Shown: positions 4,370 through 58,895, counted from the stretch's first letter. The stretch is 64,000 nt of DNA from Vicinamibacterales bacterium (GCA_963821375.1 CAWGDN010000002.1:808546-872545); one strand, 5' to 3'. The notes: a model not told the origin generated them from the sequence alone. Numbers and translations: made by a program.

Positions 4370-5607
4370 TCAGAGCACGTGTTCTTTTCTGTGCGCTGCG
4401 AAATCCACGAACGTCTTGATCACGATGAGCAAGGCGAGTGCGCCGACGGTGCTGCCGAGTCCCATGATGATCCATCCGCCGAAGATCAACGTCAGGTGCA
4501 TCACGATGATCCGGTTGTAGGGCGCCTTCATCAACGCGTTCATCGTTGTCGTCGCGTACTCACGGCGCCCGAGGAAATTCGTTTGGTACGACACGCCGTG
4601 GCTGATGAACAGTGCAACCAGCGGTACCCACAGCGGCTCGAACGTAGACCGCAGTGCCACGAGAACGTGGGGCTCCGGACCCGTTGCTGCTATCCCTCGG
4701 ATGAAGAGCATATAGATGAAGAGGAAGTGCATCGCCATGAATCCGCCGAAGTGCGCGAAGAAGAACGGAATCGAAACGATGGCCAGCGCCTTGCCGACGA
4801 CCGCCATCTTCAGGGCGGTGTAGAACGCGATGGTCGCGCTCTCGGCCCAGTACAGCACGACGACCTCGGCGAGATCCCACCGAAGAACAGCACGCCGGCG
4901 AGTGGCAGCAGGTTGGCGGCAATGAGCGCGAGGCCGGACGCTGACGCGACCGATGGTGGCGCGTCGGCAGGGATTGGGGATTGGGAGCTGGAAGCTGGTG
5001 GCTGAGAGCTCAAGGCTGGCGGCTGAAAGCTGGGAGCCGGCGGCTGCGGGTTCGTCAGAGCCGCCACTCTTGCGGATTGCTCGATCGTGTTCATCAGCCG
5101 CTCGGCGTCCGATCGCGGCATGGCGTCGCCGATCCCCGACGTGCCCCCGCCGTAGTCGAACGCGAGACGCACGCGATCTCCAGCTCCCGCAGGCTCGAGC
5201 CGCACGTTGCGAAGCTTGGCGAGGTCGTACTCGATCGCGAGGTTCAACGGTCCGAGGGTCGGTAGGTGAACGAGCCTGTTTCCCTGAAGCCGTGCCGACT
5301 CTTTGCAGAACAAGAAGAGCACCGTCAGTCCACCGAGGACCGCAACGCCGACCGACCATCCCATCACCCAGAATCCCATGAACAGAAACGTCATGAGACC
5401 GAAGACATCGTCGATTGAGTGATTGGCGAATTGCGATATGGCGCTGACTTCGACCGCGAGGAAGATGGCGAACATGGCGCCAAGCACGAGACCGGCCGGC
5501 CTCATGTTCCGAGGGGGCAGTTGAAGCGGGATGCTGCCTGGTGCCTCATCACGCCATTGCACCCGAATTCGCTCGGGCCAGCCCTTGCGCACCGTGGTCG
5601 ACGTCAC
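4370..5607 (-). CDS. membrane protein with an N-terminal TM/soluble region, a 7-aa-repeat linker and a DUF6498-like C-terminal membrane domain; frame break near 4879
   Basis: Track ORF 4810..5607 ends ...LIAANLLPLAGVLFFG. Track ORF 4370..5359 continues WDLAEVVVLYWAESATIAFYT..., the typical DUF6498 start. One missing base in ggt(t)ggg would join them. Confidence 0.6.
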
Positions 5608-5643
5608 CTCCTAACTATCGGACGGTGGCCGATAGAGCGCACA

Positions 5644-6501
5644 TCATTCGATCGCGTCGAGTCCTTCGGTCAATTCGATGTAGGTTCCCCATGGGTCGGT
5701 GATGAAGGCAATCGACGCCTTGAGGTCCGGCACCTGCCGGACATTGACCGCTTTGATGCCCATTGCTTCGAGCTTCTTGAGGAATTCGGCCAGATTGTCG
5801 ATCTCGAACCCCACGTGATCGACCACCCTGCCTTGCGTACCGACGACGGGAGTTGTCGAAGCCGAGAAGTTCAACGACACTCCGGGGAGCGTTGCCGTGA
5901 GGAAACGCCCGCCCGGCGCGCCGGCTTTCGCGCCGAACACTTTGACGTACCAGGCCTGCATCTCTTCGTTCTGCTGGCCGAAGAAGTGCACGTGTTGGAG
6001 CGCGACCGGCGCCTTCTGCTCAGGGATCTGAACGAGCTCGACCTTGAGATCGTCAGGACCCAGGACGAACGCAAGCGACCGGCCGGTGCCATTCGGATTG
6101 CCGGTGATGTCATCGTTCACCGGCCAGCCCTCGGGCGCACTTTCGCGCGTGACCATGCGGTAACCGCCGGCCCTCAGCTTGTCGATCACCGGCCGCAGGT
6201 TGGGCACCGAGAGGCCAAGATGATCGGCGGTTGTGCCCACCGAACCCCCCTTGGGAGCCTGCTGTCGAAGGAAGACCAGCACGTTCGGGAACTTGATGAT
6301 CTCCCGTCCGCCGATGGTGATCGGAACGCCCCCGAGGGTGTCGGCAAAGAACTTCTTGTGCTCTGCGGTATTCGTCGCGTTGACGTGATGGTGACCGTAG
6401 ACGACCGGACCGTCCTTCGCGACCGAAAGCTGTCCCGACGCCGGGCCAGCATTCAGAAGCAGGACCAAGCCGAGGATGGAGGTCAGCAGTCTTGATTTCA
6501 T
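5644..6501 (-). CDS. secreted two-domain VOC (glyoxalase/bleomycin-resistance/dioxygenase) family protein
   Basis: Signal peptide MKSRLLTSILGLVLLLNAGPASG, followed by two repeated VOC-like modules (HHHVNATN..., LQHVHFFG..., VDHVGFEID). Confidence 0.7.
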   Translation of the reverse strand: MKSRLLTSILGLVLLLNAGPASGQLSVAKDGPVVYGHHHVNATNTAEHKKFFADTLGGVPITIGGREIIKFPNVLVFLRQQAPKGGSVGTTADHLGLSVPNLRPVIDKLRAGGYRMVTRESAPEGWPVNDDITGNPNGTGRSLAFVLGPDDLKVELVQIPEQKAPVALQHVHFFGQQNEEMQAWYVKVFGAKAGAPGGRFLTATLPGVSLNFSASTTPVVGTQGRVVDHVGFEIDNLAEFLKKLEAMGIKAVNVRQVPDLKASIAFITDPWGTYIELTEGLDAIE

Positions 6502-6634
6502 AGAGTGTTCCTTTGTCGTGAGAGTTGCGGCGCCACTTTACAGCTTCCAGCTTTCAGCCGCCAGCTTCCAGCTCTAAGCCCCAACCCCTAGTCCCTAGCC
6601 CCTGACTGGAACGAAGCTGTTCTATGCTTGGGAG

Positions 6635-7756
6635 ATGGACCTCGATCTGAGCGCCCATCAGCGGGACGTTCAGCGCAGGGCGCGCGAGTTCGCCGAGACA
6701 TCTGTCGCGCCGGTTGCCGCCGAGCTGGATAGGCAGGGGCGTTGCCCTGCCGAGATCATCGCCGGCGTCGCCCGCCTCGGCCTGCTCGGCTGCGAGCACG
6801 ACTTTGTCGCCTACACCGCCGGACTCGTCGAAATCTCCAGAGCCTGGGCCTCGCTCGGATCGATCGTCGCCGTTCACAACTCGCTGGTCTGCTACCCGAT
6901 CGCGCGCTACGGCACCGACGCACAAAAGAAGAAGTACCTGTCTCTGCTCACCGATCAGCGGCAGCTTGGGTGCTACGCGTTTGCCGAACCATTCGCCGGC
7001 TCAGACGCCGGAGCGATCAGGACGACGGCCGTCGCTGACGGGGATGTGTTCGTGCTCAACGGCCACAAGCGATTCGTGACGAACGGGCGCCAGGCCCGAG
7101 TGGCGATTGTCTACGCGCTGACGGACCCGGCCAGAGGGCGCGACGGTCTTTCGGCTTTTCTTGTTGAGATGAACGCGCCGGGGCTGACGGTAGGTGACAC
7201 CAATGACATGCTTGGACTGCGCGCCGCCGAAACCGTCGACCTGCTGCTCAGTGATTGCCGCGTGCCGAAGGCGAACCTGCTCGGCGGGCTGCACGAAGGA
7301 TTCGCCATTGCTCGTGAAGTGGTCGAGGGCGGTCGGATCGACATCGCCGCGCAGGCCGTGGGCATCGGCGAGGCGTGTCTCGAGCAGAGCATTGCAAAGG
7401 CGAAGAGCCGCAGGCAGTTCGGCCGGCCGATTGCCGAGTTCGAGGCAATCCAGTGGATGGTCGCCGACATGTCGACGGAAATCGATGCCGCACGGTTGCT
7501 GATGTTCAAGGCGGCTGCAATGCGCGCGGCGAATCCTGGAGACGGGCGGCTGACGATCGCGGCTGCCATGGCCAAGCTCTTCGCGTCGGAGGCCGCCAAC
7601 CGCGCGGCGTACAACGCGCTGCAGATCTTCGGCGGCCACGGATACCTTACGGAATTTCCGGTTGAACGCCTCTATCGCGATGCCCGGGCGATGACGCTGT
7701 ACGAAGAGACGTCAGAGATCGAGCGATTGGTGATTGAACGAGAGTTGGCGAAATAA
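6635..7756 (+). CDS. acyl-CoA dehydrogenase
   Basis: Full-length ACAD pattern: [48 protein letters not shown]. Confidence 0.9.
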
Positions 7757-8898
7757 TGCCACTTATTTCCCTCACCGAAGACCAGCAACTTCTCAAGCAG
7801 GCGATGCGCGAGTTCGCCGAGGGGGAGATCGCTCCGGGCGCGGCCGAACGTGACGAGCAGTCGCGCTTTCCCTCTGAACTGATTCCGAAGCTGGCCGAGC
7901 AGGGCGTTCTGGGCATCATGGTTCCAGAGGAGTACGGCGGCGCCGGGTACGATGCCGTGAGCGCCGCTCTCATCATCGAAGAAATCGCGCGCGTCGATGC
8001 GGCAGTGGCATTGCTGGTCGGATCGCACAACTCGCTATGCTCGGGCCACATCCTGCTGGCCGGAAGCGCGGAGCAGAAGAAGAAATATCTTCCGCCGCTC
8101 GCGCGAGGCGAGAAGCTCGGTGCCTGGGCGCTCACCGAACCCGGATCGGGATCCGACGCGGGCGCCATGCGCACGCGGGCGACGCTCGAAGGCGATGGAT
8201 GGGTGATTCGCGGCGACAAGCAGTTCATCACGCAGGGCTCGACCGCCGGCACGTACGTCATCATGGCATCGACCGATCCAGGCCAGGGCGCGAAAGGCAT
8301 CTCCGCGTTCATCGTCGATCGAAATACACAAGGTCTTGCGGTCGGCAAGCTCGAGAAGAAGCTTGGCGTTCGCGCGTCGGACACCGCCGCGTTGCACTTC
8401 GACGAGATGCGCGTTCCCAAGGAGAACCTGCTGGGCAACGTGAATGAAGGATTCAAGGACGTGCTGACCGTCCTCGCCGCGGCGCGCATCGGCATGGCGG
8501 CGCTGGCGGTTGGGATCGCACAGGGAGCGCTCGACGAGGCGCTCGCGTATGCGAAGCGGCGCCGCCAGTTCGGCAAGCCCATCCTCGAGTACGAGGCGAT
8601 CCAGTGGATGCTCGCCGACATGGCGACCGAAAGCGAAGCGGCCAGGCTGCTGGCGTGGCATGCGGCGGCGCTTAAAGATGAGGGAAGGCCTTACCTTCGC
8701 GTGGCGTCTCAGGCGAAGCTGTATTCATCGGAGGTTGCGGTTCGGTCGACGTCCAAGGCCATCCAGATTCACGGTGGATACGGCTATCTGAAGGACTCGC
8801 CGGTCGAGCGGTTCTATCGCGACGCCAAACTGTGCGAGATCGGCGAGGGAACGTCGGAGGTACAGCGGATGGTCATCGCTCGAGAACTGTTCCGGTGA
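7756..8898 (+). CDS. acyl-CoA dehydrogenase (short/branched-chain type)
   Basis: [51 protein letters not shown]. Its start overlaps the stop of the upstream ACAD gene. Confidence 0.9.
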
Positions 8899-10259: not shown

Positions 10260-10629
10260 GCCGAAGGTTGTCCGCGTGCCGCTCATGCGCCTGTGCCTCG
10301 CGCGGTCTGGCGACAAGGGCGACACCGCCAACATCGGCGTCATCGCCCGATCCGAAGCGATCTACGCATGGGTGCTCGAACATCTCACTCCGGCGTTCGT
10401 CAAGCGCCACTTCGACGACGTGTGCGAGGGAGAGGTGGAGCGCTTCGAGCTGCCGAACCTGATGGCCGTCAACTTTCTGCTGCACAACAGTCTCGGCGGC
10501 GGCGGCACGCTCTCGCTGCTGCTCGACGCGCAAGGCAAGACGTACGCACAATATCTGCTCGCCGCCGAAGTAGAGGTGCCAGAAGAGCTGATCCATGCAG
10601 ATGCTTCCGACGCTCGTCAGCAAGGATAG
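10240..10629 (+). CDS. AtuA-associated small protein (AtuA C-terminal-like domain)
   Basis: LARSGDKGDTANIGVIARS motif, located immediately after atuA. The start is uncertain: GTG 10240, TTG 10249, GTG 10276 or ATG 10285. Confidence 0.55.
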   Translation: MKSLSSEPKVVRVPLMRLCLARSGDKGDTANIGVIARSEAIYAWVLEHLTPAFVKRHFDDVCEGEVERFELPNLMAVNFLLHNSLGGGGTLSLLLDAQGKTYAQYLLAAEVEVPEELIHADASDARQQG

Positions 10630-12201: not shown

Positions 12202-12960
12202 ATGACCAGACACATCCAGACCCGTCGGGAGGACGGCGTCGAACACCTCGTGCTGAATCGGCCCGAGGTGCGCAACGCGTTGAACGAGGAGGTGATCGCA
12301 CAGGTCACCGAGTGGGCGCGCGCGATCGCCAACGACGCCGACGTGCGAGCCGTGGTGATCTCCGGCGCCGGACCGTCCTTCTGCTCGGGCGCCGACCTTG
12401 CGTGGATGACGAAGATGGCCGGCTACACGCGCGACGAGAACATCCAGGATGCGCGCGCCGCGGCGGCCATGTTTCTCGCGCTCGACACGCTGCCGGTTCC
12501 CGTCATCGCGAGAGTGCACGGCGCCGCCGTTGGCGGCGGCGCTGGGCTGGCCGCGGTCGCCGACATCGCAGTCGCCGACGAAGCCGCGACATTTGCGTTT
12601 TCCGAAGTGAAGCTGGGATTGATCCCCGCCGTCATCGCCCCGTATGTGCTGGCGAAGGTCGGCATGTCGGCCGCCCGGGAGTTGTTTGTGACCGGACGCC
12701 GGTTCGACGCCGACCATGCGCGGCGGATCGGACTCGTGCACGTCGTTGCCGCCTCCGAGCAGCTGGATCGAACTGTCGAGACCTGCTTGTCCGAGCTCCG
12801 GGCGAACGGTCGAGAGGCAATGGCCGAGGCGAAGAAGCTGCTGCGCGCGCTCGCCGGACGGACGGCCGCAACGGTTGGAGAGATGACAGCAGAAGCGATT
12901 GCGATGCGGCGAGTCTCTGCGGAGGCGCAAGAAAGAATGAAGAGGTTCCTCAGTAAGTGA
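12202..12960 (+). CDS. enoyl-CoA hydratase/isomerase family (methylglutaconyl-CoA hydratase-like)
   Basis: Crotonase pattern: LNRPEVRNALN, ISGAGPSFCSGADL, HGAAVGGGAGLAAVADI, SEVKLGLIPA. Confidence 0.85.
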   Translation: MTRHIQTRREDGVEHLVLNRPEVRNALNEEVIAQVTEWARAIANDADVRAVVISGAGPSFCSGADLAWMTKMAGYTRDENIQDARAAAAMFLALDTLPVPVIARVHGAAVGGGAGLAAVADIAVADEAATFAFSEVKLGLIPAVIAPYVLAKVGMSAARELFVTGRRFDADHARRIGLVHVVAASEQLDRTVETCLSELRANGREAMAEAKKLLRALAGRTAATVGEMTAEAIAMRRVSAEAQERMKRFLSK

Positions 12961-13085
12961 TCAGTCGTCAGGCGACAGTCGTCAGTGATCAGTCCAAGTC
13001 GTCAGTCCCAGTCGACAGTCTCAGTCGGCAGTCGACAGTCGGCAGTCGACAGTCGTAGTCATCAGTCTCAGTCGATAGTCGCAGC
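12961..13085. repeat. left arm of a giant hairpin, 7-nt periodic CAGTCGN words
   Basis: AG dinucleotides counted from 12961 are spaced 7,7,7,7,6,7,6,7,6,7,7,7,7. A 32-nt stretch, cagtcgtcagtgatcagtccaagtcgtcagtc, is the exact reverse complement of a stretch in 13503..13621. Confidence 0.85.
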
Positions 13086-13121
13086 AGCTAGGGCGGCACG
13101 GGTTGTGCCTAGCCAACCCCC

Positions 13122-13502
13122 ATGTTGGCACGCTCGCTCGACGAATTGCTTGTCTATCGCAAGTCCCTGAACGCATCCGCAGCAATATCTGCCATCCTCG
13201 AACGGCGAGGAGTGCGCCGAGATTGGCCGCTTTGCAAACAAATGGGGTCGGCTGCTGGAGCTGTTGCGGCCAACATCGCGGAAGGATTTGGGCAGCAGAG
13301 CGATCGTCAGTTCGCCAAGTACCTCTTCATAGCCCGCGGCTCGTCGCACGAGATGCGGGCGCATCTCATGATCGCGCATAGCCGGAGCTACCTCGAAGAC
13401 GCGGAGTTGCGCGATCTGTCAAGCAAGTACGAAGAAATTGCCAAAATGTTGACCGGCCTCATCAAGTATTTGATTGCCAGCGATCGCCAGCAGCGCGGGT
13501 AG
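13122..13502 (+). CDS. four-helix-bundle protein (23S rRNA intervening-sequence protein family)
   Basis: 126 aa with AANIAEGFGQQSDRQFAKYLFIARGSSHEMRAHL and the overall family pattern. It lies in the loop between the two arms. Confidence 0.9.
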   Translation: MLARSLDELLVYRKSLNASAAISAILERRGVRRDWPLCKQMGSAAGAVAANIAEGFGQQSDRQFAKYLFIARGSSHEMRAHLMIAHSRSYLEDAELRDLSSKYEEIAKMLTGLIKYLIASDRQQRG

Positions 13503-13621
13503 CGACTGTCGACTGGGACTGACTACGACTGTTGACTAGCGACTCGACTGTGACTAGCGACTGAGACTGCTGACTGAGACTGACGACTTGGACTGATCAC
13601 TGACGACTGACGACTGTCGAC
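13503..13621. repeat. right arm of the giant hairpin, 7-nt periodic GACTGNC words
   Basis: Reverse complement of the left arm; contains gactgacgacttggactgatcactgacgactg. Confidence 0.85.
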
Positions 13622-13627
13622 TATAAT
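13601..13627 (+). promoter_or_regulatory. possible guaA promoter: TATAAT at 13622..13627, ending 7 nt before the ATG (leaderless-type spacing)
   Basis: A perfect TATAAT hexamer lies at the end of the hairpin arm, with TGAC-containing words upstream as weak -35 candidates. guaA ATG is at 13635. Confidence 0.3.
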
Positions 13628-13634
13628 TTGCTGC

Positions 13635-15447
13635 ATGTTAGGCATCGCGGTCCTCGATGCTGGCGGGCAGTACCTGTCATCTGCTCGCGCGGCGCGTGCG
13701 CGAATCGGGCGTGCAAAGCCATGTGTTGCCGATCGAAACCACCGGCGATCAGCTCGCCGGCGTCAGCGGCATCATCATCTCTGGCGGGCCGCGCAGCGTC
13801 ACCGAGGCCGGATCGCCTCGCGTCGATCCGTCCATCTTCTCGCTGAACGTTCCCATCCTCGGGATCTGCTACGGCCATCAACTGCTTGCGGCGACGCTGC
13901 CGGGCGGCGTGGTGAAGCGCAGCCACTCGCGCGAGTACGGCCTTGCGCGGTTTCGGCTTGCGCCGGATTCGAGCGCACACGACGCGCTCGGCTTGTTCGC
14001 CGGTGTACCCGAGTCGAGCCAGGTCTGGGTCAGCCACGGCGATTCAGTGGAGAGGCTGCCGGCAGGGCTCGACGCGCTCGGCTCGACCGACGACTGTGCT
14101 GTTGCGGCGATGGGCGATGCCGGCCGCCGCATCTACGGCGTGCAGTTTCACCCGGAAGTGACCCACACCGAATTCGGCGCTGTGCTGCTCGGCAACTTCG
14201 TGCGCCGTGTCTGCGGCTGCGCGGCGACATGGAAGCCGTCGTCGGCCGAGACCATCGAAGCGATCAAGGCCGACATACGGGCGCGAGTCGGTGCGTCAAA
14301 GAAGGTGCTGTTCTTCGTGAGCGGCGGCGTCGATTCATCGGTCGCGTACAAACTGTGTGCCGACGGGCTGGGCCAGGATCGCGTCCATGGCGTCTACGTC
14401 GACACCGGGTTCATGCGCAAGAACGAGTCGGCCGAGGTGATGACGTCGTACGAAAGGGCCGGCTTTCTCAATGTGCGCCTTCGCGATGCGTCAGTGGAGT
14501 TTCTCGCGGCCGTCGGGGACGAGACGAATCCAGAGACCAAACGGAAGCTGATCGGCGCGGCGTTCTTATCGGTGGAAAACGACGTGCTCGCCCATCTTCC
14601 GAGAGGCGAGTGGCTGCTCGGCCAGGGCACGATCTATCCCGATACGATCGAGTCGGGTGGCACGCGCGAGTCGGCGCTCATCAAGACACACCACAACCGC
14701 GTGCCCGAGCTGCTCGTGCGGGTTGCGGCCGGGGAGGTCGTGGAGCCGCTCGTGCAGTTCTATAAGGATGAAGTCCGCGAGATCGGGCGTGCGCTCGGCT
14801 TGCCGTCGCGGCTCATCGAGAAGCAGCCGTTTCCGGGTCCCGGCCTCGCCGTCAGATTTCTGTGCGCCGACGCACCGGCGGCATGGTCTCAGGACGCCAA
14901 GCTCGACGAGGTGGCGGCGCCATTCAAGCTTGGCGCGCGCGTGCTGCCGGTTCGCGGCGTCGGGGTTCAAGGGGACGAGCGCACGTATGCGCATACGGCG
15001 CTGCTCACCGGTGACTACGACGAGCAGCGCGTTGCCGAGCTCGCGCCGGCGATCACCAATGCCTGCCGGGACGTGAACCGCGTCGCGTTCTGGGCGGGAT
15101 CGAAAGGCACGATCGACGACTTCAAGGTCGAACCGACGACCACGTCCCGCGAAGGCCTCGACGTGCTGCGCGAAGCCGACGCGCGCGTGCGCGACATCCT
15201 CGCCGACTACGACACGCAGAAGCGCATCTGGCAATGTCCGGTGGTGATGCTGCCGCTCAAGCGCAACGGCGAGGCGTCCATCGCGATCAGGCCCGTCGAA
15301 TCGCATGACGGCATGACGGCGCAGTACGCCAAGCTGCCATGGCCCGTCATCGAACGCATCCGGGCGGCCGTGCTCGACGTGCCCGGCGTCGGCGCCCTCC
15401 TCTACGACGTCACGAACAAACCGCCGGCCACGATCGAGTGGGAGTAG
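13635..15447 (+). CDS. guaA: GMP synthase (glutamine-hydrolysing), long form; frame break near 13672
   Basis: MLGIAVLDAGGQY is in one frame. CHLLARRVRESGV..., ICYGHQLL, FHPEV, FFVSGGVDSSV, KTHHN and the C-terminal PPATIEWE are in the next. Removing one c from cagtacctgtcat restores QYCHL. Confidence 0.9.
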
Positions 15448-15450
15448 GCA

Positions 15451-15691
15451 GCCAGTCGTCAGTCATCAGTCGTCAGTGATCAGTCTCAGTCGCCAGTCCC
15501 AGTCACCAGTCTCAGTCAATAGTCGACAGTCGCTGTCAATGAGTCGCCCGCCACGAAATAGCGTGAAGCGAGCGCAACTCGCTGTGTCTAAAAGACTGCT
15601 GACTGCGACTTTCAATTTTGACTGTCGACTTACGACTTTGACTGTGACTGTCGACTGAGACTGATCACTGACGACTGACGACTGGTGACTC
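15451..15691. repeat. ORF-less long hairpin of the same CAGTCGN word family
   Basis: Left arm ~15451-15540 and right arm ~15596-15691 are reverse complements (gtcagtgatcagtctcagtcg...). They enclose a ~60-nt unique loop. Confidence 0.8.
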
Positions 15692-15936: not shown

Positions 15937-16016
15937 GCGGCGGTTCTCGGTTCTCGGTTCTCAGTTCTCAGTTCTCAGTTCGAACTGAGAACTGAGAACG
16001 CAGAACCTAGAACCGC
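15937..16016. repeat. hairpin of GTTCTCA/TGAGAAC heptads with a TTCGAA apex (15979..15984) between convergent genes
   Basis: gcggttctcggttctcggttctcagttctcagttctcagttcgaactgagaactgagaacgcagaacctagaaccgc. It touches TAG 15933-15935 on one side and CTA 16018-16020 on the other. Confidence 0.85.
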
Positions 16017-16450: not shown

Positions 16451-17996
16451 ATGCTGAACCTCTCCGCAGTACTCGAGCAGCACGCACGGCGCAGGCCGCA
16501 GGCCGAGGCGATCGCGTGCGGTTCGACGCGCCTGTCGTACGGCGAGCTCGATGGCCTGGCAAATCGCATCGCTGGAGGACTCGCCGCATCCGGCATCCGC
16601 CGTGGCGACCACGTTGCGCTGCTGAGTCCTAATCTTCCGCAGTTTCCCGCGATCTACTTCGGCATCCTCAAGACTGGCGCGACCGTCGTGCCGCTCAACG
16701 TGCTGCTCAAGCCGCGAGAGATCGCGTACCACTTGCGCGACAGCGACGCGAAAGCTGCTGTTCTGTTTTCAGGGAACGCCGGAGCTTCCCATGGCGCAGG
16801 CGGCGAAGGCCGCCGTCGACGTCGTGCCCTCCTGCTCCGAGCTCGTCGTCATCGGCGGCAGCCCCGATGACGATGCGACGACGCTCGATCGATTTGTGGC
16901 GGGCCATCCGCCGACATTCGATACCTGCGACACGAGTCCGAACGATACGGCCGTCATGCTCTATACCTCGGGCACGACGGGACAACCGAAGGGCGCCGAG
17001 CTGACGCATCTCAACATGACGATGAATGCGATGGTGTCGGCGGAGTTGTGCGCCTCGTCACACGATGGCACCGGCCGGCACGCGACCGCAGTGACGCTTC
17101 CGCTGTTCCATGCCACGGCACAGACCGCGCAGATGCTCGCGTACCTCCATCTTGGCGGCAGTCTCGTGCTGCTGTCGCGATTCGACCCCGCGGCGCTGCT
17201 GAACGCGATCATCAGCGAACGCGTCACGCATTGGGTGGGCGTGCCGACGATGTACTGGATGCTGCTGAAGCATGCGAGAGAGCATGGCGTCGATGTCTCG
17301 AAGGCGGCAGCGAGTCTGAAGCTCGTCGTCTCGGGCGGCGCGCCGATGCCGGTGGAGCTGATGAAGGACTTCGAGCACACCTTCGGCGTCCGCATTATCG
17401 AGGGCTACGGACTCTCGGAGACGGCGCCCGTGGCCACCTTCAATCATCTCGATCGTCCCTCGAAGCCCGGCACGGTGGGCCAGCCGCTCTTTGCCGTGGA
17501 CGTGATGATCGTCGATGACAAGGACGAGCCGGTACAGACTGGGACGCCTGGCGAGGTCGTCATTCGCGGTCACAACGTGATGAAGGGCTACTACAAGCAG
17601 CCCGAAGCGACGGCCGAAGCGATGCGGAACGGCTGGTTCCACACGGGCGACATCGGCACGCTCGACGCCGACGGCTATCTTTGCATCGTCGATCGCAAGA
17701 AGGACATGATCCTGCGCGGCGGGTTCAACGTGTATCCGCGCGAGCTCGAAGAGGTGATGCTGACGCACCCGGCCGTGTCGCTCGTGGCCGTCATCGGCGT
17801 TCCCGACGAGCGGCTGGGCGAGGAAGTAAAGGCGTTCGTCGTCAAGAAACCCGGAACCGACATCAGCGAGGACGAGCTGCAGGCCTGGTGCCGGGACCAG
17901 CTAGCTGACTACAAGTATCCCCGCCATATCGAGTTCCGCACGGAGCTGCCGACGAGCGCGACGGGAAAGATCCTGAAGAGAGAACTTCGCGGGTGA
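16451..17996 (+). CDS. AMP-dependent acyl-CoA synthetase/ligase (long-chain fatty acid-CoA ligase-like); frame break near 16780
   Basis: MLYTSGTTGQPKGA, GYGLSETAP, GWFHTGDIG, PTSATGKILKREL. The N-terminal 110 aa are in a different frame. Confidence 0.85.
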
Positions 17997-18075
17997 GTCA
18001 GTTCTCAGTTCTACGTTCTCCGTTCTCAGTTCGAACCCAGAACCCAGAACCCAGAACTGACGAACTGACGAACTT
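17997..18075. repeat. second GTTCTCA-family hairpin with a TTCGAA apex (18030..18035)
   Basis: gtcagttctcagttctacgttctccgttctcagttcgaacccagaacccagaacccagaactgacgaactgacgaac. It starts directly after the ligase stop (17994-17996). Confidence 0.75.
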
Positions 18076-18123: not shown

Positions 18124-19072
18124 ATGGACACCATCGAACAAGAAATTCTCGACGCGTACTCGCAGGCCGTCGTTCGGGCGGTAGAGCTGGTCGGTCCCTC
18201 TGTCGTCACCATCGAGGTCGGCCACGACAAGGGGCGTCGCGGCCAGGGAGGCCACGGCTCCGGGTTCGTGTTCACACCAGACGGCCTGGTCCTGACCAAC
18301 AGCCACGTCGTTCACGGAGCGCAGACGATTCGTGTGACGCTGCCGGACGGCCGGAAGCTTCCGGCCGCCTTGATCGGCGAGGATCCGGACACCGACTTGG
18401 CCGTCGTGCGCGCCGCGGCCTCGGATCTGCCCGCGCTTAAGCTCGGCGACTCACAGGCCATTCGCGTGGGTCAGCTCGTGGTTGCCATCGGCAATCCGCT
18501 GGGCTTCTCGGCGACGGTCACGGCCGGCGTCGTCAGCGCGCTCGGTCGATCGCTGCGTTCGCGATCGGGCCGGCTGATGGACGACATCATTCAAACCGAC
18601 GCGGCGCTCAATCCGGGCAATTCTGGCGGGCCGCTCGTGAACTCCCGCGGCGAAGTGATTGGCGTCAACACCGCCGTCATCTCCGGCGCGCAGGGGCTCT
18701 GCTTCGCCATTGCGGCCAACACCGCGCAGTTCGTCGTCGGCCGGCTGATTCGCGACGGCCGGATCCGCCGATCGTATCTGGGCGTCGCCGGCCAGAACAC
18801 GCCGATCGCGCGGCAGATCGTCCGCTTCTACGGCTTGGCAATGTCGAAAGGCATCCTGGTTGCGACGATCGAGCCCGACAGTCCGGCAGCGAAGGGCGGC
18901 CTGCAGGAAGGGGACATGATCGTCGGCCTCGACGGACACGACGTGTCGCAGCATCGATCAGCTGCACCGGCTGCTGTCGGAAGAGCGCATCGGCCGAGAG
19001 GCGACGTTCACCGTGGTGAGGCGCACCGAGAAGCTGGAGTTGCGCTTGATCCTCGCCGAGCGCACGGACTAG
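18124..19072 (+). CDS. HtrA/DegP-family serine protease with PDZ domain; frame break near 18950
   Basis: TNSHVV, DTDLAVV and GNSGGPL form the catalytic triad context. The PDZ tail [40 protein letters not shown] reads in a second frame and ends at TAG 19070-19072. Confidence 0.85.
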
Positions 19073-19082
19073 ACTGAGCGTT

Positions 19083-19206
19083 CGGGTTTCCTGGTGGCCC
19101 GGAACCTGTGCAATCTCAGTCTATGAACCGCGTCAGGGCCGGAAGGCAGCAGCGCTAAGTAGTCCCTGAGCTGTGCCGCAGGCCCTCCGGGCCTCTAAGG
19201 AACCCG
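19083..19206 (+). ncRNA. ffs: signal recognition particle RNA (small bacterial 4.5S type)
   Basis: Conserved helix-8 core GUCAGGGCC-GGAA-GGCAGCAGC at 19132-19150. Flanking pairings: ggcccgga 19096-19103 with tccgggcc 19186-19193, and cgggtttcc 19083-19091 with ggaacccg 19199-19206. The position just upstream of dnaX is the classical one. Confidence 0.75.
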
Positions 19207-21210: not shown

Positions 21211-21223
21211 GCCAGGCCAATCG

Positions 21224-21373
21224 CCATTGGTAGATTGTCAGATGGTTGGATTGTCAGAATGTTGTCGATTGAGGATGGGCAGATTGAAGATTCATTTGAA
21301 GATTTGTTCGAACTTCTACACTCTTCATTCTTCAAGATTCTAGGAATCTAACCGTCTGACAATCTACCAATGG
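21224..21373. repeat. AT-richer long imperfect hairpin (AGATTGN heptads, TTCGAA apex 21307..21312) between ybaB and recR
   Basis: ccattggtagattgtcagatggttggatt at the left end pairs with aatctaaccgtctgacaatctaccaatgg at the right end. The left arm is longer than the right. Confidence 0.8.
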
Positions 21374-21380
21374 TGAGCTG

Positions 21381-23806: not shown

Positions 23807-23889
23807 CAGGGGCGAGGGGTAAGCGGCAAGGGGCAAGCGGCGTTCCTCGTTACCCCTTACCCCTTACCCCTTATCCCTTACCCCTACTG
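23807..23889. repeat. hairpin of GGGGTAA/TTACCCC heptads between convergent genes
   Basis: caggggcgaggggtaagcggcaaggggcaagcgg ... taccccttaccccttaccccttatcccttacccctactg. Flanked by TAG 23799-23801 and overlapping CTA 23884-23886. Confidence 0.8.
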
Positions 23890-24270
23890 TGCGGGCTTGG
23901 GGAGTCGCTCCGGATAGAAGGTGTACGCGCGGCCGTTGATGGTCGCGCGCACCGCCTTCATGAGTTTCTCGCCCTCACGGTTGGACCGGTTGCCCAGAAT
24001 GACGACGGTGTCTCCCACCTTCGCCGAGCCTTCAACAAAGCCCGCCGCTTGCGTCTGGTTGGGATTTCCAAAGTCCACGGTCCATGGGCCGTCAGCGGTC
24101 TCGATCTGAATCTGGGGATGCGGGGGGCCGATGTAGATCTTGGTGATTTTCCCCGTCATTTCCGTCTGATTCGGATCTGTCCACGTCCAGCCGTGATGCG
24201 CCATGACGCCGGTTGTCAGGAGGCCGACGGTGATGATGCCAACCAAGCCGAGGATCGCTCTTGAAGCCAT
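23884..24270 (-). CDS. small secreted/membrane-anchored protein (DUF6152-like)
   Basis: MASRAILGLVGIITVGLLTTGVMAHHGW... Start moved to ATG 24270, which has an AGGAGGG RBS. Confidence 0.55.
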   Translation of the reverse strand: MASRAILGLVGIITVGLLTTGVMAHHGWTWTDPNQTEMTGKITKIYIGPPHPQIQIETADGPWTVDFGNPNQTQAAGFVEGSAKVGDTVVILGNRSNREGEKLMKAVRATINGRAYTFYPERLPKPAQ

Positions 24271-24385
24271 GTTTACCCTCCTTCTAAAGGATACGACGCG
24301 TCTGAGGGAACGTTGACCACATTCCGCCCGCCACATACAATGAGGGGTTCCTTCCGAGCGCCGAGCGGCGCTCAGTGCTCCGTGT

Positions 24386-24460
24386 TCCTCAGTAGCTCAA
24401 CGGCAGAGCATCCGGCTGTTAACCGGAGGGTTGCTGGTTCGAATCCAGCCTGAGGAGCCA
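24386..24460 (+). tRNA. tRNA-Asn (anticodon GUU)
   Basis: Cloverleaf read by hand: acceptor TCCTCAG/CTGAGGA, D stem GCTC/GAGC, anticodon stem TCCGG/CCGGA with loop CTGTTAA, T stem GCTGG/CCAGC with loop TTCGAAT, 3' GCCA. Confidence 0.95.
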
Positions 24461-51845: not shown

Positions 51846-51848
51846 ACG

Positions 51849-53546: not shown

Positions 53547-53590
53547 GGCTGGCGCAGGCGGAGTTTGGGCCAAGCGCTGAGGAGGTATTC

Positions 53591-54310: not shown

Positions 54311-55428
54311 GGACAAAGAACCAGCGGCGACCTTGCCATTCGAGCTACACGAACGTCTTGGTCAGACTTCCTGTGTTTATCCTAGCCGCATTTGCAACCA
54401 CGCAAGACACAGCGTCGCAGGGTGAACTCCGCTCAAGGGTTGCCGAACGCGCCATTCAAAGACGCGTCGTAGCTAGTGTGACCCTCGCTGCCAACGGCAT
54501 TTCCGATCCTCTTGGCTTCGTTGTACCGCCAAATACCCGATCGGTCACACTCGTCGTTGAGGGAGACGAGCGAAGACTGTACGCGCTGGCCTCCCTGCGA
54601 ATGCCTGACGGAATTGAGCATGTCAATCTCGATCTCAGCCGGTCGTATGACGCTGTGATGGAGAAGAGCTACAACGAAGAGATTGGAGCCATGGCCGGGG
54701 ATCTCTACCAGAACATTCGATTGGGCACCTTCACCAGCATTTTTCCGTACCTCCCAACGCAAGTACTGGGAACTGGCGCGGCGGAACTGAGAGTGGCCTC
54801 AAACCGTGGTGGAGGAGCGGTCAAAGTAACAGTGCTGATGCCTGAGGAGAGTGCGACACCAAGGACTCTGCACATCAACTTGATTGTGGTTTCGGACAAA
54901 GAGTGGGGCGGCCGCGCGAATTTCTTGTTGCCGGCGCAGGACATACTCAAGCGAGCAGACCTTCAGGTGATTGTCGACGAGATCAGATACCTGCGCCGCA
55001 GCCCGTTCAGCCGCATTACCGAGTGGACTGAGCCACAGGAGAGGCCACGCAGTCAGTTGGCGAGGATGGCTGTCGCGGGTCGCAAATTGGTCTCCTCAGA
55101 TGCTCTGAACATCTTCATCGTCGATGCGCTGCCGCGCGACGTCTATGGCATCAGCCTCGGCACTCCGGGTCCTCCAATCAGTTCAAGCTACTACTATGGC
55201 GTGGTATTGCGGCAATTGGAGTCGGATGACTTCATGGGCCGCGTCTTTGCCCATGAGGTATGCCACTTTCTCGGTCTATACCATCTCGTTGACTTCGGAG
55301 CGTCGGGAACCCGGCATTTCGATCCATTTTCGGACACGGAGCCGGCTCAGGGAAATTTGATGGAGAGTTCGGGCTTGTTGCTCACGCCTATTCAGAAGTT
55401 TGCTCTGTCGCGAAGCCCGCTGTTGTGA
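54307..55428 (+). CDS. secreted metzincin-type zinc metalloprotease-like protein
   Basis: AHEVCHFLGLYH is a complete HExxHxxGxxH signature. Hydrophobic N-terminus VLVRLPVFILAAFA. Confidence 0.7.
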   Translation: MRTKNQRRPCHSSYTNVLVRLPVFILAAFATTQDTASQGELRSRVAERAIQRRVVASVTLAANGISDPLGFVVPPNTRSVTLVVEGDERRLYALASLRMPDGIEHVNLDLSRSYDAVMEKSYNEEIGAMAGDLYQNIRLGTFTSIFPYLPTQVLGTGAAELRVASNRGGGAVKVTVLMPEESATPRTLHINLIVVSDKEWGGRANFLLPAQDILKRADLQVIVDEIRYLRRSPFSRITEWTEPQERPRSQLARMAVAGRKLVSSDALNIFIVDALPRDVYGISLGTPGPPISSSYYYGVVLRQLESDDFMGRVFAHEVCHFLGLYHLVDFGASGTRHFDPFSDTEPAQGNLMESSGLLLTPIQKFALSRSPLL

Positions 55429-55436
55429 AATCGCTC

Positions 55437-55460
55437 GGACACGGCACCTAGGTAACACTT
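55437..55460. repeat. IS-end-like motif remnant
   Basis: ggacacggcacctaggtaacactt resembles ggggacataggtaacacttt of the IS481-family end at 24505-24524. Confidence 0.35.
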
Positions 55461-55476
55461 CTGGCGAGTCGCGAGA

Positions 55477-56007
55477 CTAGGCAGGAACGTAGGTCAACCT
55501 GATCACATCCTCGCCAATCCGGTCACTAGTCATAAGGCGGAGCGGCGGCCGGGGCCCGGCGAAATATGGCTTGCCGTGACCAAGCACGACGGGGTGCAGG
55601 TAGATTCGATACTCATCGATCAGGCCAAGCTCGGTGAGGCTTTGCGCCAAGCTCGGGCCAGCAACTTCGATCTCCCCGTCGCGCTCGGCCTTCAGCTCGC
55701 GGATCGCGCCCTCAAGATCATCCTCAACAAGCCTGGCGTTGGGGCCAACCGACTTCAACGAGTGCGAGACGACCCATTTCGGCTGCTTCCGCCACGCCGC
55801 CGCGAAGGCGCGTTCCTCTGCCTCCCATTCAGGATGATCGTCGTCCCAGTAACGCATGACCTCATACATTTGGCGACCGTACACACTGCCCGCCTGCCCC
55901 TGGGCCTCCTCGATGAAGTGGCGGAAGAGCGTGGGGCTTGGCGCAAACGCCATATGGTCGACGTAGCCGTCCAGGGACTGGTTCATTCCGAACACGAGCC
56001 TAGCCAT
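55477..56007 (-). CDS. dihydrofolate reductase family protein (RibD C-terminal domain)
   Basis: MARLVFGMNQSLDGYV..., LHPVVLGHGKPYFAG, IRLTYVPA. Confidence 0.8.
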   Translation of the reverse strand: MARLVFGMNQSLDGYVDHMAFAPSPTLFRHFIEEAQGQAGSVYGRQMYEVMRYWDDDHPEWEAEERAFAAAWRKQPKWVVSHSLKSVGPNARLVEDDLEGAIRELKAERDGEIEVAGPSLAQSLTELGLIDEYRIYLHPVVLGHGKPYFAGPRPPLRLMTSDRIGEDVIRLTYVPA

Positions 56008-56240
56008 GCCACTTCCTTTCCTCACGCGATCATCGCGTCGGCCATACAGATTCCCATGGCCGCGAGGGCCAGGCCGAGGGAGATAAGGGCGAATGCCTTC
56101 ATAGGCCTAGAGTAAGGGCAGAATTGGCGACAGGTTCGGGCCTTTTTTCCCAGGAAAGTGCCACCAGACGCCCGCCGTAAAGGAACTCTTGCCAGAGAGG
56201 GGTAACTCTGGCAAAGTAAGCCCAAATCCTAGGAGTACAT

Positions 56241-58733
56241 ATGCCAGATACGAAACTCGTCGGGGCGAACTATTCGACGCCGGAGTTGCGCGCAAAAGTG
56301 ACAGGCCGCTCGAAATACGCGGAGGACTTTCGCGCCGAAGGGATGCTGTTTGCGCGGTTGGTGTTGAGCCCGTACGCGCACGCGCGGATCAGAAGCATCG
56401 ACACGAGCGCCGCGCTGGCCATGCCAGGCGTGAAGGCTATTCTGACGCCGGACGATGTGCCCGGGCCCAAAGATCAGATCAACGACAACGGTCAGATAAT
56501 CAGGGCCAATCCTCGCAGCGAAACGGCGCTCAGCAAAGAGGCGATGTATCAGGGTCAGCCGGTGCTCGCCGTGTGCGCCGAGAGCGAGTTCATTGCTGCC
56601 GAAGCGATCGAACGCATCAGGATTCAGTGGGAGCCGCTGCCGTTCAACGTGGATCCGGTGGCGTCGCTCGTGCCGGGCGCGCAGAATGCGCGCGTTGAAG
56701 GCAACGTATGGAAGCGCCCCGCGCCGCCCGCCCAGGGGCAGCCGCCTGGCATTCCCGAGCCGATCGACGTGAAGTGGAACGAGGCTGAGGTCGAGGAATT
56801 CAGGCAGGGCCGGCTGCCGGTGACCACGTTCACCGATCCCGAATGGACGCTCGGCGACGTCGAAGCAGGCTTCAAGAAGGCGGCGCTCGTCCTCGACGAG
56901 ACATTCGTCAGCGCGAACGTCAGCCATCAGTGTCTCGAGTCGCGCACGGCGATGGCGTACTGGCAGAACGGCAAGCTGCATATCCACACCTCCACGCAGG
57001 GCGTGGCGCAGGCGGTCTTTTCGTTCGTGCGCTGGCTCGACCTGAAGCCGGAAGACGTGGTCCTGGTGAACGCCTACACGGGCGGCGGCTATGGCTCGAA
57101 GGGCGGCGGTTCGATCACGGACATCATTCCCGCGCTTCTTTCGAAGAAACTCGGCGGAGCGCCGGTGATGATGCGCATCAGCCGGGAAGAGGAGCATGCG
57201 ATTGGCCGCGCGCGACCGGCGATGCACGGCCGCATGAAGGTGGGTTTCACGAAGGAAGGCCGCATTACCGCCGTGGACATGTTTACGGTGAGTGAAGGCG
57301 GGCCCTACGGTCCCAACAACGACGGCAATACGGCGAGCTCGTACGCGTCTTTGATGTATCAGCCGGAAACGTTCCGTTTCCGCGGCATCACTGCGATTAC
57401 AAACACGCCGCCGCGCGGCGCGCTCACCCAGCCGGGCGGCTTCCAGGGCTGCGTGCTGATGGATCAAATCGTCACGAAAGCGGCGCGCCAGCTCGGCGTC
57501 GATCAGGTGGCGATCCGCAAGCTGAACGCGCCCGAAGGAAAGGCGCCTTACGGGCCAGCCAATGCCAAAGGCCAGCGCTCGTACGTGACAAGCTGCTTCA
57601 TCAAGGAGGCGCTGGACAAGGGCGTGGCGGGGTTCAACTGGAACGAACGGGTGGCGCGTGGCCCGCAACGCAACGGCTCGAAGGTGCGCGGCGTGGGTGT
57701 CGGCATCAGCTCCTATAGCGGCGGCTCGGTAGGGTTCGACGGTCTGTTCATCATCAGGCCGGACGGCACGATGCGCGTCCATACGGGAATCGGCAATCTC
57801 GGCACCGAGTCGTTCTCCGACTGCCAGCGCGTGGCGGCCGAGATGGTCGGCATGCCGTGGGAGAAAGTGGAAGTCGTCTGGGGCGATACGTCGTTGCACC
57901 TGCCGTGGAGCTGCAACTCGGGCGGCAGCCAGACCATTCATGCCATGACGCGCGCCGCGCACGCCGCGGCGACCGATGCGATTACCAAGCTGCAGCAGAT
58001 CGCCGCCAGGGATCTTGGCGGGAGACCCGAGGACTACGTCGTGAGCGGCGAGCGCGTCTCCCGCAAGGGCGGCGGTGGCGGGATGACGCTTGCGCAGGCG
58101 GCCAAGCGCGCCATCGAGCTCGGAGGCATCTACGACGGCCACGAGTTGCCCAAAGACATCAATGCGATGACAACGCGCTCCGCGACGGCTCTGGCCGGGC
58201 AGGGGCTCATGGGTGTCGGGAAGGACAATTACAAGCGAGACGGAACAACCCGGTCCTACGCCGCCGCCTTTGCTGAGGTCGAGGTCGACACCGAGACCGG
58301 GAAGTATACGGTCACGGACTTTCTTGCCGTGGGCGACGTCGGCACCGTGATCCATCCGACCGCGCTCGGCGGCCAGGTGCTGGGCCGTTCGATCCTCGGG
58401 ATCGCTCACGCCATCGGTCAGCGGTGGATCTATGACCAGCGGTACGGTGTCGGGCTCGCGAAGCGGTTCTACAACAATAGTCCGCCGACGATTCTCGACG
58501 TCCCCGTAAATATGGCGTGGGACGCCGTCGGCCTGCCCGATCCGGAAACGCCGATTGGCGCGCGAGGCATCGGCGAGCCTCCGGTTGCGGCTGCCTGCAC
58601 CTCGGTGCTGAACGCGATTTCGGACGCGCTCGGCGACCAAGTGTTCGTCCGCGCGCCGGTTCTGGTGGATCACATCGTCAATGCGCTCGACACCAAGCAA
58701 CTGGGGCAGATCCGGCTCACGGCGAACGTCTAG
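56241..58733 (+). CDS. xanthine dehydrogenase/aldehyde oxidase family molybdopterin-binding subunit
   Basis: 830 aa: KVTGRSKYAEDF, FARLVLSPYAHARI, GGGYGSKGG, IGEPPVAAA. No adjacent FeS or FAD subunit genes. Confidence 0.9.
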   Translation: MPDTKLVGANYSTPELRAKVTGRSKYAEDFRAEGMLFARLVLSPYAHARIRSIDTSAALAMPGVKAILTPDDVPGPKDQINDNGQIIRANPRSETALSKEAMYQGQPVLAVCAESEFIAAEAIERIRIQWEPLPFNVDPVASLVPGAQNARVEGNVWKRPAPPAQGQPPGIPEPIDVKWNEAEVEEFRQGRLPVTTFTDPEWTLGDVEAGFKKAALVLDETFVSANVSHQCLESRTAMAYWQNGKLHIHTSTQGVAQAVFSFVRWLDLKPEDVVLVNAYTGGGYGSKGGGSITDIIPALLSKKLGGAPVMMRISREEEHAIGRARPAMHGRMKVGFTKEGRITAVDMFTVSEGGPYGPNNDGNTASSYASLMYQPETFRFRGITAITNTPPRGALTQPGGFQGCVLMDQIVTKAARQLGVDQVAIRKLNAPEGKAPYGPANAKGQRSYVTSCFIKEALDKGVAGFNWNERVARGPQRNGSKVRGVGVGISSYSGGSVGFDGLFIIRPDGTMRVHTGIGNLGTESFSDCQRVAAEMVGMPWEKVEVVWGDTSLHLPWSCNSGGSQTIHAMTRAAHAAATDAITKLQQIAARDLGGRPEDYVVSGERVSRKGGGGGMTLAQAAKRAIELGGIYDGHELPKDINAMTTRSATALAGQGLMGVGKDNYKRDGTTRSYAAAFAEVEVDTETGKYTVTDFLAVGDVGTVIHPTALGGQVLGRSILGIAHAIGQRWIYDQRYGVGLAKRFYNNSPPTILDVPVNMAWDAVGLPDPETPIGARGIGEPPVAAACTSVLNAISDALGDQVFVRAPVLVDHIVNALDTKQLGQIRLTANV

Positions 58734-58750
58734 GAAGCTCCGCCCCGTCA

Positions 58751-58895
58751 GGTAAGAGGGGCAAGGGGCCGGCGCAAGGGACAAGGGACAAGGGGCGAGG
58801 GGTAAGGGGTAAGGGGCGAGGGATGAGGAATGAAGTTAAAAGGCTTCTCCTCACCCCTTTCCCCTTGTCCCTCGCCCCTTTCGTGTTTCTCCTCC
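58751..58895. repeat. asymmetric hairpin of GGGGNAA heptads (nine G-runs) and its C-rich complement
   Basis: ggtaagaggggcaaggggccggcgcaagggacaagggacaaggggcgaggggtaaggggtaaggggcgaggg ... ctcctcacccctttccccttgtccctcgccccttt. Confidence 0.8.

Follow-up and report, generated by a model that had tools for sequence, protein, structure and literature searches.

Tandem heptanucleotide arrays as inverted pairs at gene boundaries of a Vicinamibacterales bacterium, with an invertible cassette resembling 23S rRNA intervening sequences

What are the long palindromes, built of words repeated every 7 nt, that occupy nine loci in a 64,000-nt stretch (the window) from a Vicinamibacterales bacterium of the Acidobacteriota (GCA_963821375.1, CAWGDN010000002.1:808546-872545)? 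A sequence-only reading had placed them exactly at gene boundaries and had seen in them neither a described repeat class nor a family of copies. It is nearly certain that these loci are tandem heptanucleotide arrays arranged as inverted pairs, of the class known as STRR, repetitive sequences of short tandem units, or as long simple sequence repeats (SSRs). With equal near-certainty one of them, E1 (12961-13622), is a cassette of the intervening-sequence (IVS) type outside rRNA, with the same architecture as those 23S rRNA IVSs that bear a gene for a four-helix-bundle (4HB) protein, and the other loci are versions of it that lack an open reading frame (ORF). The class is already described; what is new is its acidobacterial form with several words, a cassette outside rRNA that can invert and, most of all, an association of 4HB genes with heptamer arrays that crosses phyla.

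Periodicity was measured by 42-nt sliding self-match (periods 1-15, threshold >=0.75) and by Tandem Repeats Finder (TRF). Period 7 alone was prominent: 97 windows reached the threshold at period 7 and only three others did, all at period 13 (7+6), so that the proposed pattern survived a formal test. TRF returned period-7 arrays at 4970-5046, 6541-6603, 12961-13084, 13503-13622, 15451-15545, 15594-15690, 15943-15999, 17998-18074, 23808-23885 and 58757-58894, with copy numbers of 2.3-17.7 at all loci but 21221-21376, and no period-7 locus in the window other than those listed below. Locus 21221-21376 is a good palindrome of weak periodicity (TRF period 8/16), underneath which a GATTGNC heptamer is visible in relatives. 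Direct reading reproduced the reported spacing of AG dinucleotides from 12961 (7,7,7,7,6,7,6,7,6,7,7,7,7); 6-nt units throw an ungapped comparison of mirrored arm units out of register. Every locus had a reverse-complement partner, matching at 87% over 38 nt (5000-5037/6543-6580), 89% over 71 nt (12963-13033/13552-13622), 80% over 71 nt (15454-15524/15620-15690) and 72-88% at the remaining loci; arms of the same word stood 0-1.5 kb apart, in the convergent orientation that marks the pairs recognised in Xanthomonas. The palindromes folded with minimum free energies of -34 to -196 kcal/mol, the last value being that of the joined E1 arms, and were far more stable than dinucleotide shuffles (z -3.9 to -12.5). 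At least five words are used in the window. The elements are as follows (positions and strand in the window).

4971-5048 (minus): heptamer/21-nt array (GGGATTG, then AGCTGGN x3 units), complement of 6541-6608, inside the DUF6498 coding sequence.
6541-6608 (no strand): array complementary to 4971-5048 (CAGCTTC followed by CCCCTNG), in the gap that separates the divergent VOC (start 6501, minus) and acyl-CoA dehydrogenase (start 6635, plus) genes.
12961-13091 (plus): E1 left arm, ~17 CAGTCGN units, 0 nt past the stop of the enoyl-CoA hydratase (ECH) gene (12202-12960).
13095-13109 (plus): hairpin GGCAC-N5-GTGCC, ~12 nt 5' of the 4HB start codon, by reading.
13122-13502 (plus): 4HB gene, 126 aa, TIGR02436/PF05635 '23S rRNA intervening sequence protein', with an Avd-like fold.
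13503-13622 (plus): E1 right arm, ~17 CGACTGN units, directly after the 4HB stop codon.
13600-13627 (plus): promoter-like CTGACG-16 nt-TATAAT from a promoter scan, 7 nt ahead of the ATG of guaA (13635).
15451-15545 (plus): E2 left arm (CAGTCGN), 3 nt past the guaA stop, homologue of the E1 left arm.
15594-15691 (plus): E2 right arm (CGACTGN); the whole of E2 folds at -134 kcal/mol (z -10.8).
15937-16016 (no strand): spacer-less palindrome GTTCTCN/NGAGAAC, centre TTCGAA, between the convergent stops of a 73-aa gene and a response-regulator gene.
17997-18075 (no strand): spacer-less palindrome TCAGTTC/GAACCCA, centre TTCGAA, 1 nt past the acyl-CoA ligase stop codon.
21221-21376 (no strand): AGATTGN palindrome, imperfect and of period 7-8, with TTCGAA at its centre, between ybaB and recR.
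23807-23889 (no strand): palindrome AGGGGYA/TTACCCC between convergent genes, one of which, encoding DUF6152 (23884-24336, minus), has its stop codon overlapped by the right end.
58751-58895 (no strand): palindrome AGGGGYA (~10 units)/CCCCTTK, 18 nt past the stop of a molybdopterin oxidoreductase gene (56220-58733).

The ORF between the E1 arms, on which the sequence-only reading was silent, matched TIGR02436 (NCBIfam, E 1.8e-24) and PF05635 (Pfam, E 3.9e-24), both above curated cut-offs. Its nearest solved homologue is XCC0516 (2GSC; E 2.4e-29 with a profile), and its predicted structure (pLDDT 96.6) resembled 2GSC and 2RLD, each with five chains in the crystal, at TM 0.8-0.9. The predicted fold was also like that of Avd from diversity-generating retroelements (DGRs) (4DWL/8UBE; TM 0.70-0.87), which was reached by the fold search only, a sequence-profile search from the protein giving no match to DGR Avd. 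A DGR component was rejected for the window gene: ECH and guaA adjoin it here as they do in every relative, no reverse transcriptase is nearby, and there is no pair of template and variable repeats beside it. The protein shows no recognisable catalytic motif and gave no tblastn match at 1e-6 against PLSDB plasmids; a close homologue is annotated Vicinamibacterales. By reading, the GGCAC-N5-GTGCC hairpin is kept ~12-20 nt 5' of the 4HB start in the related loci L001, L003, L004, L008, L016, L084-L086 and L089 and follows the ORF in inverted cassettes; it may serve in translation or autoregulation.

Beyond the window, a metagenome scan gave 80 4HB loci (29-90% identity, GC 35-68%), dereplicated to 62, of which 50 had at least 150 nt on both sides. 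A period-7 array lay within 250 nt of the gene in 41 of these 50 (82%), where the density of arrays on the rest of these contigs predicts ~16% (p=1.6e-24), and arrays stood on both sides in 18 of the 50. Without dereplication both arrays were present at 22 of 63 loci with both flanks, and in 13 of the 22 the two words were reverse complements within one mismatch (for example CGTAAGT/ACTTACG, AGCATTC/CTGAATG and AGTTTGT/AACTACA). Moreover, of the arrays elsewhere on the 4HB contigs 30% used the word that flanks the 4HB gene; for other loci the share was 8%. Most arrays, however, stood far from any 4HB gene, none being present in some 80 further 20-kb loci. Most 4HB contigs were ~1 kb long; heptamer arrays break metagenome assemblies. 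The literature that we searched held no general statement of a 4HB-heptamer association, the only related report being that of the Coxiella IVS (PMC4990558).

Three of the metagenome loci (L108, L138 and L153) carry the 4HB ORF inside a 23S rRNA gene (Rfam LSU) and are genuine IVSs from uncultured organisms; two of them (L108 and L138), in which TAGGAAT arrays precede and ATTCCTA arrays follow the 4HB gene, are textbook IVSs with heptamer stems. The Coxiella IVS likewise holds an S23p ORF, terminal inverted repeats, strain-variable tandem GACAGAT heptamers and an RNase III cleavage site in its stem (PMC4990558), and in Xanthomonas the XCC0516 gene has its start overlapped by a GGGAATC array (Rehm et al. 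supplementary table, PMC4692102), a 4HB link on which its authors did not remark. The window cassette is like the IVSs of Leptospira and Coxiella (PMC4990558) in enclosing a PF05635 ORF within terminal inverted repeats of a long stem, but differs in that it lies between ECH and guaA, has much longer stems (~120 nt) and is invertible; Rfam found no rRNA in the window, and the cassette is thus no insertion into a 23S helix (9, 25 or 45).

Other metagenome loci held arrays in further settings. One (L112, 2913-3775) has a 4HB cassette with CGTAAGT/ACTTACG arms directly upstream of a tmRNA gene (RF00023, 3425-3775). Two (L115 1-5693 and L150 1-4320) have five to seven arrays each, sometimes with nested words (outer CAGCTTR, inner CGTAAAG), among small genes that, from their ORF translations, look like toxin-antitoxin genes (nucleotidyltransferase/HepT-like, HicA-like, MazF-like and a duplicated 76-aa gene).

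How the arrays behave at one and the same boundary was seen in relatives: a scan with the protease gene (18124-19077) gave 14 syntenic Vicinamibacterales loci (75-88% identity), which were mapped gene by gene. The common order was acyl-CoA dehydrogenase, acyl-CoA dehydrogenase, AtuA, carboxyltransferase, ECH, (4HB), guaA, 73-aa gene, response regulator, acyl-CoA ligase, protease and, further on, dnaX, ybaB and recR. In the ECH-guaA gap the cassette is forward in the window, L001 and L089, and inverted, with arm polarity kept (left CAGTCGN, right CGACTGN), in L003, L004, L008, L016, L084-L088 and L090. It is also inverted in L011, where an insertion of ~1.35 kb (3776-5126) encoding an IS256-like (mutator-type) transposase splits the 4HB gene. 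Short GC or REP-like hairpins stand there instead in L006, L007, L010 and L012, and nothing in L014 and L015. At least three changes of orientation were needed on the neighbour-joining tree built from ten intact 4HB proteins, and the closest relative (L084, 90% identity) has the cassette inverted with respect to the window. Both orientations were found in contigs of differing origin (k141-tagged names and other projects of metagenome-assembled genomes, MAGs) and the arms are imperfect, hence we take the inversions as real. The 4HB identity (61-72%) parallels that of the adjoining ECH gene (66-76%), and L084-L090 all have the same context; this tracking argues that the cassette is old and resident at the locus rather than a recent arrival.

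The other boundaries were equally variable. Between guaA and the 73-aa gene there are CAGTCGN palindromes (window, L004, L005), GAGTCCN (L007, L012, L016), GCAGAGA (L011), TGGTCCY (L013), CATCGTC (L015), or nothing (L008, L010, L014, L017); between ybaB and recR there are GATTGNC/AATCGCC palindromes of varying length, or nothing. The 3' end of the gene g19 has AGGGGYA palindromes (window, L015), GGTTCTG (L005) or long GGTTCGT arrays with 8-9-nt periods (L007, L008, L010, L016), and in place of the window's GTTCTCA palindromes relatives have short GC hairpins or a stop codon that overlaps a start codon. L008 bears a fresh slippage footprint, a 14-nt unit in five copies; 14- and 21-nt super-units occur, as do direct-only arrays where relatives have palindromes. 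Thus presence or absence, word turnover and change in copy number were found across the 14 relatives in the gaps between guaA and the 73-aa gene, between the AMP-ligase and protease genes, between ybaB and recR and 3' of g19, and the earlier idea of local slippage and template switching fits this variation in copy number, word and presence. The boundaries of the sister genomes form an evolutionary series, from nothing through a direct array and a palindrome to a palindrome with a gene.

Two further observations concern these gaps: REP-like hairpins GGTCCGGCTNAAGCCGGAC stand in two copies in the gap of the window's GTTCTCA palindrome in L008 (7842-7938) and L010 (7787-7876), and in L006 (7639-7857) the 73-aa gene 3' of guaA is inverted, in that relative alone, with no arrays remaining around it.

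Within the window, the claim that the elements fill intergenic gaps at gene boundaries held in general, and direct reading found the stops TAG 15933, CTA 16018, TAG 23799 and CTA 23884 exactly as given. It failed for 4971-5048, an array with a 21-nt (3x7) TRF super-period in the DUF6498 gene (4379-5607, minus), through which the L001 DUF6498 protein aligns in frame (tblastn) as a P/S/Q-rich linker. Its partner 6541-6608 is indeed intergenic but, standing in the 5' region of two divergent genes, marks no gene end; at the corresponding position L001 has no VOC gene and a gap of 63 nt. The same-word arms said to flank guaA are there, but as four arms in two palindromes rather than as one pair: the four CAGTCGN arms can be mutually aligned, irregular unit CAGTGAT included, and are 77-89% alike, giving two related palindromes, E1, which encloses the 4HB gene, and E2 (15451-15691), which sits 3' of guaA. 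The E1 right arm (13552-13622) and the E2 left arm (15454-15524), which bracket guaA, are 87% complementary, so that alternative pairings or recombination among the four arms are possible; guaA has the same orientation in every relative.

Position and vocabulary were tabulated over 1.24 Mb of fetched loci. Strong tandem repeats were dominated by period 7: the 346 kb from Vicinamibacterales held 35, and the 896 kb from other genomes, mostly other Acidobacteriota, held 23. Fifty-seven of 77 period-7 arrays (74%) were intergenic, against 14.5% intergenic sequence (p=1e-31); co-directional gaps held 47 of 56 arrays, against 57% of all gaps (p=3e-4), and gaps between convergent genes were depleted (4 observed, ~11 expected). 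Of 44 co-directional gaps, 20 had the first unit no more than 10 nt past the upstream stop codon, and only 6 had the end of the array within 10 nt of the next start codon. Three large word families (AGTCGNC, AGGGGNA and GAACCCA) made up 48 of 58 arrays in the clade and were reused at non-orthologous sites, the commonest being AGTCGNC, the 4HB-linked word; word pairs within one mismatch numbered 203 against 34 expected (maximum 61 in 200 randomisations). The earlier view that this is no copy-and-paste family was not borne out: the same-word arms of E1 and E2 are homologous and a small vocabulary is reused at non-orthologous sites.

That these elements belong to no described class likewise had to be given up. 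Heptanucleotide STRR sequences of heterocystous cyanobacteria were reportedly described by Mazel and colleagues in 1990, and Vioque is said, going by a 1997 title, to have placed one inside an RNase P RNA gene. Like STRRs, which can lie inside a structural RNA gene, the window arrays have tandem 7-nt units head-to-tail, are dispersed and mostly intergenic, and use several words per genome; they differ in phylum, in words and in being inverted pairs, STRRs being usually described as direct. The accessible part of the STRR literature states no 4HB gene link. Three tandem heptanucleotides occur in Calothrix PCC7601 (PMC4692102). The GGGAATC repeats of Xanthomonas and GGGGA(C/T)T repeats of Nostoc are 89-93% intergenic, mostly between co-oriented genes, are kept at orthologous sites with variation in length and sequence, and each Xanthomonas genome has 70-75 pairs of them that are inverted and convergent (Rehm et al. 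2015, PMC4692102); there one dominant G-rich word is read as a G-quadruplex (G4) former, whereas the window has at least five words, most of them unable to form G4. The TAACTGA repeats of Beggiatoaceae, cyanobacteria and Bacteroidetes (MacGregor 2015, PMC4679880) are intergenic tandem heptamers of patchy distribution, and their word resembles the GAACTGA and CGACTGA units of the window; on the other hand nearly all are direct, of 2-6 units and just upstream of start codons, whereas those of the window form inverted pairs, are longer and have stop codons as their anchors.

Of other classes, integron attC sites fail for want of a 7-nt periodicity and of an integrase, and CRISPR for want of spacers. 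As to MITEs (miniature transposable elements with inverted repeats), no target-site duplication could be read at the flanks of E1, E2, 15937-16016 or 17997-18075. MITE-like copying is suggested by the likeness of the E1 and E2 arms and by recurring words, but lengths and inner parts differ and there is no linked transposase. Repetitive extragenic palindromes (REPs) are palindromes of 20-40 nt with a fixed consensus and no internal 7-nt period, and REP-associated tyrosine transposases (RAYTs) are Y1 transposases. REPs, their mosaic elements (BIMEs) and REPtrons share with the window elements intergenic palindromes past gene ends, clade-specific families and a small gene flanked by inverted repeats, and REP-like hairpins fill the matching gaps in some relatives; however, the window elements (80-660 nt, internally periodic, of varying words, with a 4HB protein of no known catalytic activity) fall outside the definition by size, periodicity and word variation.

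How, then, could such arrays arise and persist? We consider it probable, short of assured, that heptamer arrays are formed in situ by slippage, arm homogenisation and arm-arm recombination, with RNA duplexes open to RNase III-type processing: i) comparison of relatives shows that arrays gain and lose units by slipped-strand mispairing of the DNA and turn over fast, arising past stop codons, changing word or vanishing; ii) arm complementarity may be kept by inverted duplication or intrastrand template switching together with gene conversion, which would account for variant units mirrored between arms, for centres that have no spacer and for the missing strand bias; iii) arms recombine and flip the enclosed DNA, as the two orientations of the 4HB gene show; iv) arms in transcripts would form long near-perfect duplexes in which, by analogy, an RNase III cut might uncouple and end-protect the adjoining cistrons and let such DNA sit harmlessly at gene boundaries or inside rRNA; v) arm units can be co-opted, the last CGACTGN units being a candidate guaA -35 box. 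Three palindromes are spacer-less with the palindromic centre TTCGAA, as left by fold-back or inverted duplication at the DNA level; the reported apices (15979, 18030 and 21307) were exact, and their sharing is statistically weak because two of the three loci are of the same word family and a spacer-less palindrome needs a palindromic centre. No strand bias, no U-tract, no Rfam match, spacer-less centres and one coding arm favour DNA-level origin and maintenance.

The co-option step can be followed at guaA, where 'GTCGAC TATAAT' N6-7 before the start is conserved in relatives with and without the cassette (L001 8556-8576; L003, L004, L007, L010, L012, L016). As TATAAT stands 6-7 nt before the start, guaA is probably leaderless, and the last units of the E1 right arm probably supply its -35 box, CTGACG, both judged from sequence. 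The palindromic GTCGAC at empty sites could be a seed of CAGTCGN/CGACTGN arms.

Several points weigh against the in-situ explanation. Its RNase III step is pure analogy, and slippage alone leaves the period of 7 and the anchoring at stop codons unexplained. The shared vocabulary (AGTCGNC, AGGGGNA, GAACCCA) and the homologous arms of E1 and E2 point to copying or to a sequence-specific factor, not to de novo birth. For the arm that is coding, with its partner 1.5 kb away, an RNA duplex would hardly be of consequence. The missing asymmetry of G.U pairs is weak evidence because most pairs are Watson-Crick, and the ybaB-recR palindrome (21221-21376) is an exception to it, folding on the plus strand at -80.5 kcal/mol with 11 G.U pairs in sense against 3 in antisense. 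Thus the preference for seven, the stop anchoring and the shared vocabulary leave room for a sequence- or phase-specific factor, of which the 4HB protein is the obvious candidate.

A first alternative is that the hairpins are selected RNA elements (terminators lacking a U-tract, 3'-end stabilisers or cistron insulators), heptamers being merely an easy way to a stem. Any transcript crossing a palindrome would hold a long duplex, and RNase III excision is established for the identical architecture in 23S rRNA, so that RNA-level processing is plausible by analogy. Array starts 0-10 nt past the stop in 20 of 44 co-directional gaps, the short GC-rich or REP-like hairpins that seem to replace arrays functionally in the same gaps of relatives, the very stable predicted structures and the G.U pairs of the ybaB-recR palindrome all speak for selection on RNA. 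However, in 49 co-directional array gaps the sense strand folded better in 22 and the antisense in 27 (p=0.78), with no G.U sense bias; several relatives have nothing at the same sites; partnerless direct-only arrays are common; arrays are depleted between convergent genes; and one arm is coding and another lies in a divergent promoter region. Between 12800 and 24500 the seven terminator-like matches equalled the shuffle expectation and none fell at a palindrome, and no palindrome has a U-tract, bearing out that these are not canonical intrinsic terminators. As for known RNA families, only the SRP RNA and tRNA-Asn reached the Rfam gathering threshold in the window, and at E<=1 the matches below threshold were generic animal miRNA-precursor hairpins, so the elements match no Rfam family. 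Selection on RNA we think rather unlikely.

A second alternative likens the arrays to a RAYT-plus-REP system ('REPtron'), in which the 4HB protein, an Avd-like pentameric nucleic-acid binder, would bind them and propagate or maintain them and the ORF-less palindromes would be non-autonomous derivatives spread in trans. It draws on the flanking arrays at 82% of 4HB loci from diverse metagenome contigs, on the 4HB-flanking word recurring elsewhere on the contig, on AGTCGNC being the commonest clade word with the E2 arms as copies of the E1 arms, on XCC0516 adjoining the dominant Xanthomonas word GGGAATC and on the fold shared with DGR Avd, a component of an RNA-protein complex. We nevertheless hold it unlikely: most arrays have no 4HB gene in their neighbourhood, ~80 other 20-kb loci showing none, a single 4HB gene stands against five words in the window, no catalytic motif is recognisable in the protein, inspection found no target-site duplications, and the Vicinamibacterales cassette is fixed at its locus and vertically inherited.

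Very improbable, in our view, is that the arrays are sites of DNA structure or protein binding (G4 or i-motif at the AGGGGYA loci, cruciforms, or sites for a binder in 7-nt register such as cold-shock proteins). The AGGGGYA arrays (23808-23841 and 58757-58822) do have at least four G-runs, like the GGGAATC and GGGGAYT repeats that form G4 in vitro (PMC4692102), a cold-shock protein, CspB, is cited in PMC4679880 as binding heptamer direct repeats, and the right arm of E1 probably contributes a -35 box. But by reading G-runs are confined to the AGGGGYA loci (23807-23889 and 58751-58895) and are wanting in CAGTCGN, GTTCTCA, AGATTGN and CAGCTTC, so that most words are unable to form G4; moreover the words are too different for one sequence-specific binder, and presence varies among close relatives. 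Finally, chance or an assembly artefact, suggested by apparent frameshifts of a kind typical of long-read assemblies, can be dismissed, since the same arrays and cassette recur in independent assemblies (k141 contigs and other MAG projects), the period-7 excess and folding z lie far beyond shuffles, and the unique sequence of imperfect arms should let orientation be resolved.

The apparent frameshifts are in guaA (13635-13700; N-terminus MLGIAVLDAGGQY in the frame of 13635, remainder in that of 13657), the acyl-CoA ligase gene (16451-16870 versus 16791-17996) and the DUF6498 gene (~4879); they seem to be indels introduced by a long-read assembly and not marks of pseudogenes. The SRP RNA and tRNA-Asn of the window lie at 19096-19196 and 24386-24460, and the window lacks the SBD_N/NBD_C and PdxA genes that relatives have between protease gene and dnaX.

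To our knowledge, heptanucleotide repeats are the most over-represented long SSRs in bacteria, with no accepted function or mechanism, and for more than 30 years we know of no role for the proteins encoded by 23S IVSs. The window and its relatives tie the two together, and in soil Acidobacteriota the 4HB cassette sits between ordinary genes and flips. In practice, such arrays break assemblies and can carry promoter elements, as at guaA. Beyond the in-situ explanation lies a wider idea, which we hold quite unlikely: that 4HB proteins and heptamer arrays are two halves of one widespread, unrecognised gene-plus-repeat system comparable to RAYT and REP. In it the 4HB protein might, as we propose with much reserve, recognise 7-nt-phased arrays and help to create, stabilise or process them. 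If true, one system would show itself in 23S IVSs, in the ECH-guaA cassette with its inversions and in the palindromes that lack an ORF, and it would account for both the excess of heptanucleotide SSRs in bacteria and the role of the IVS proteins.

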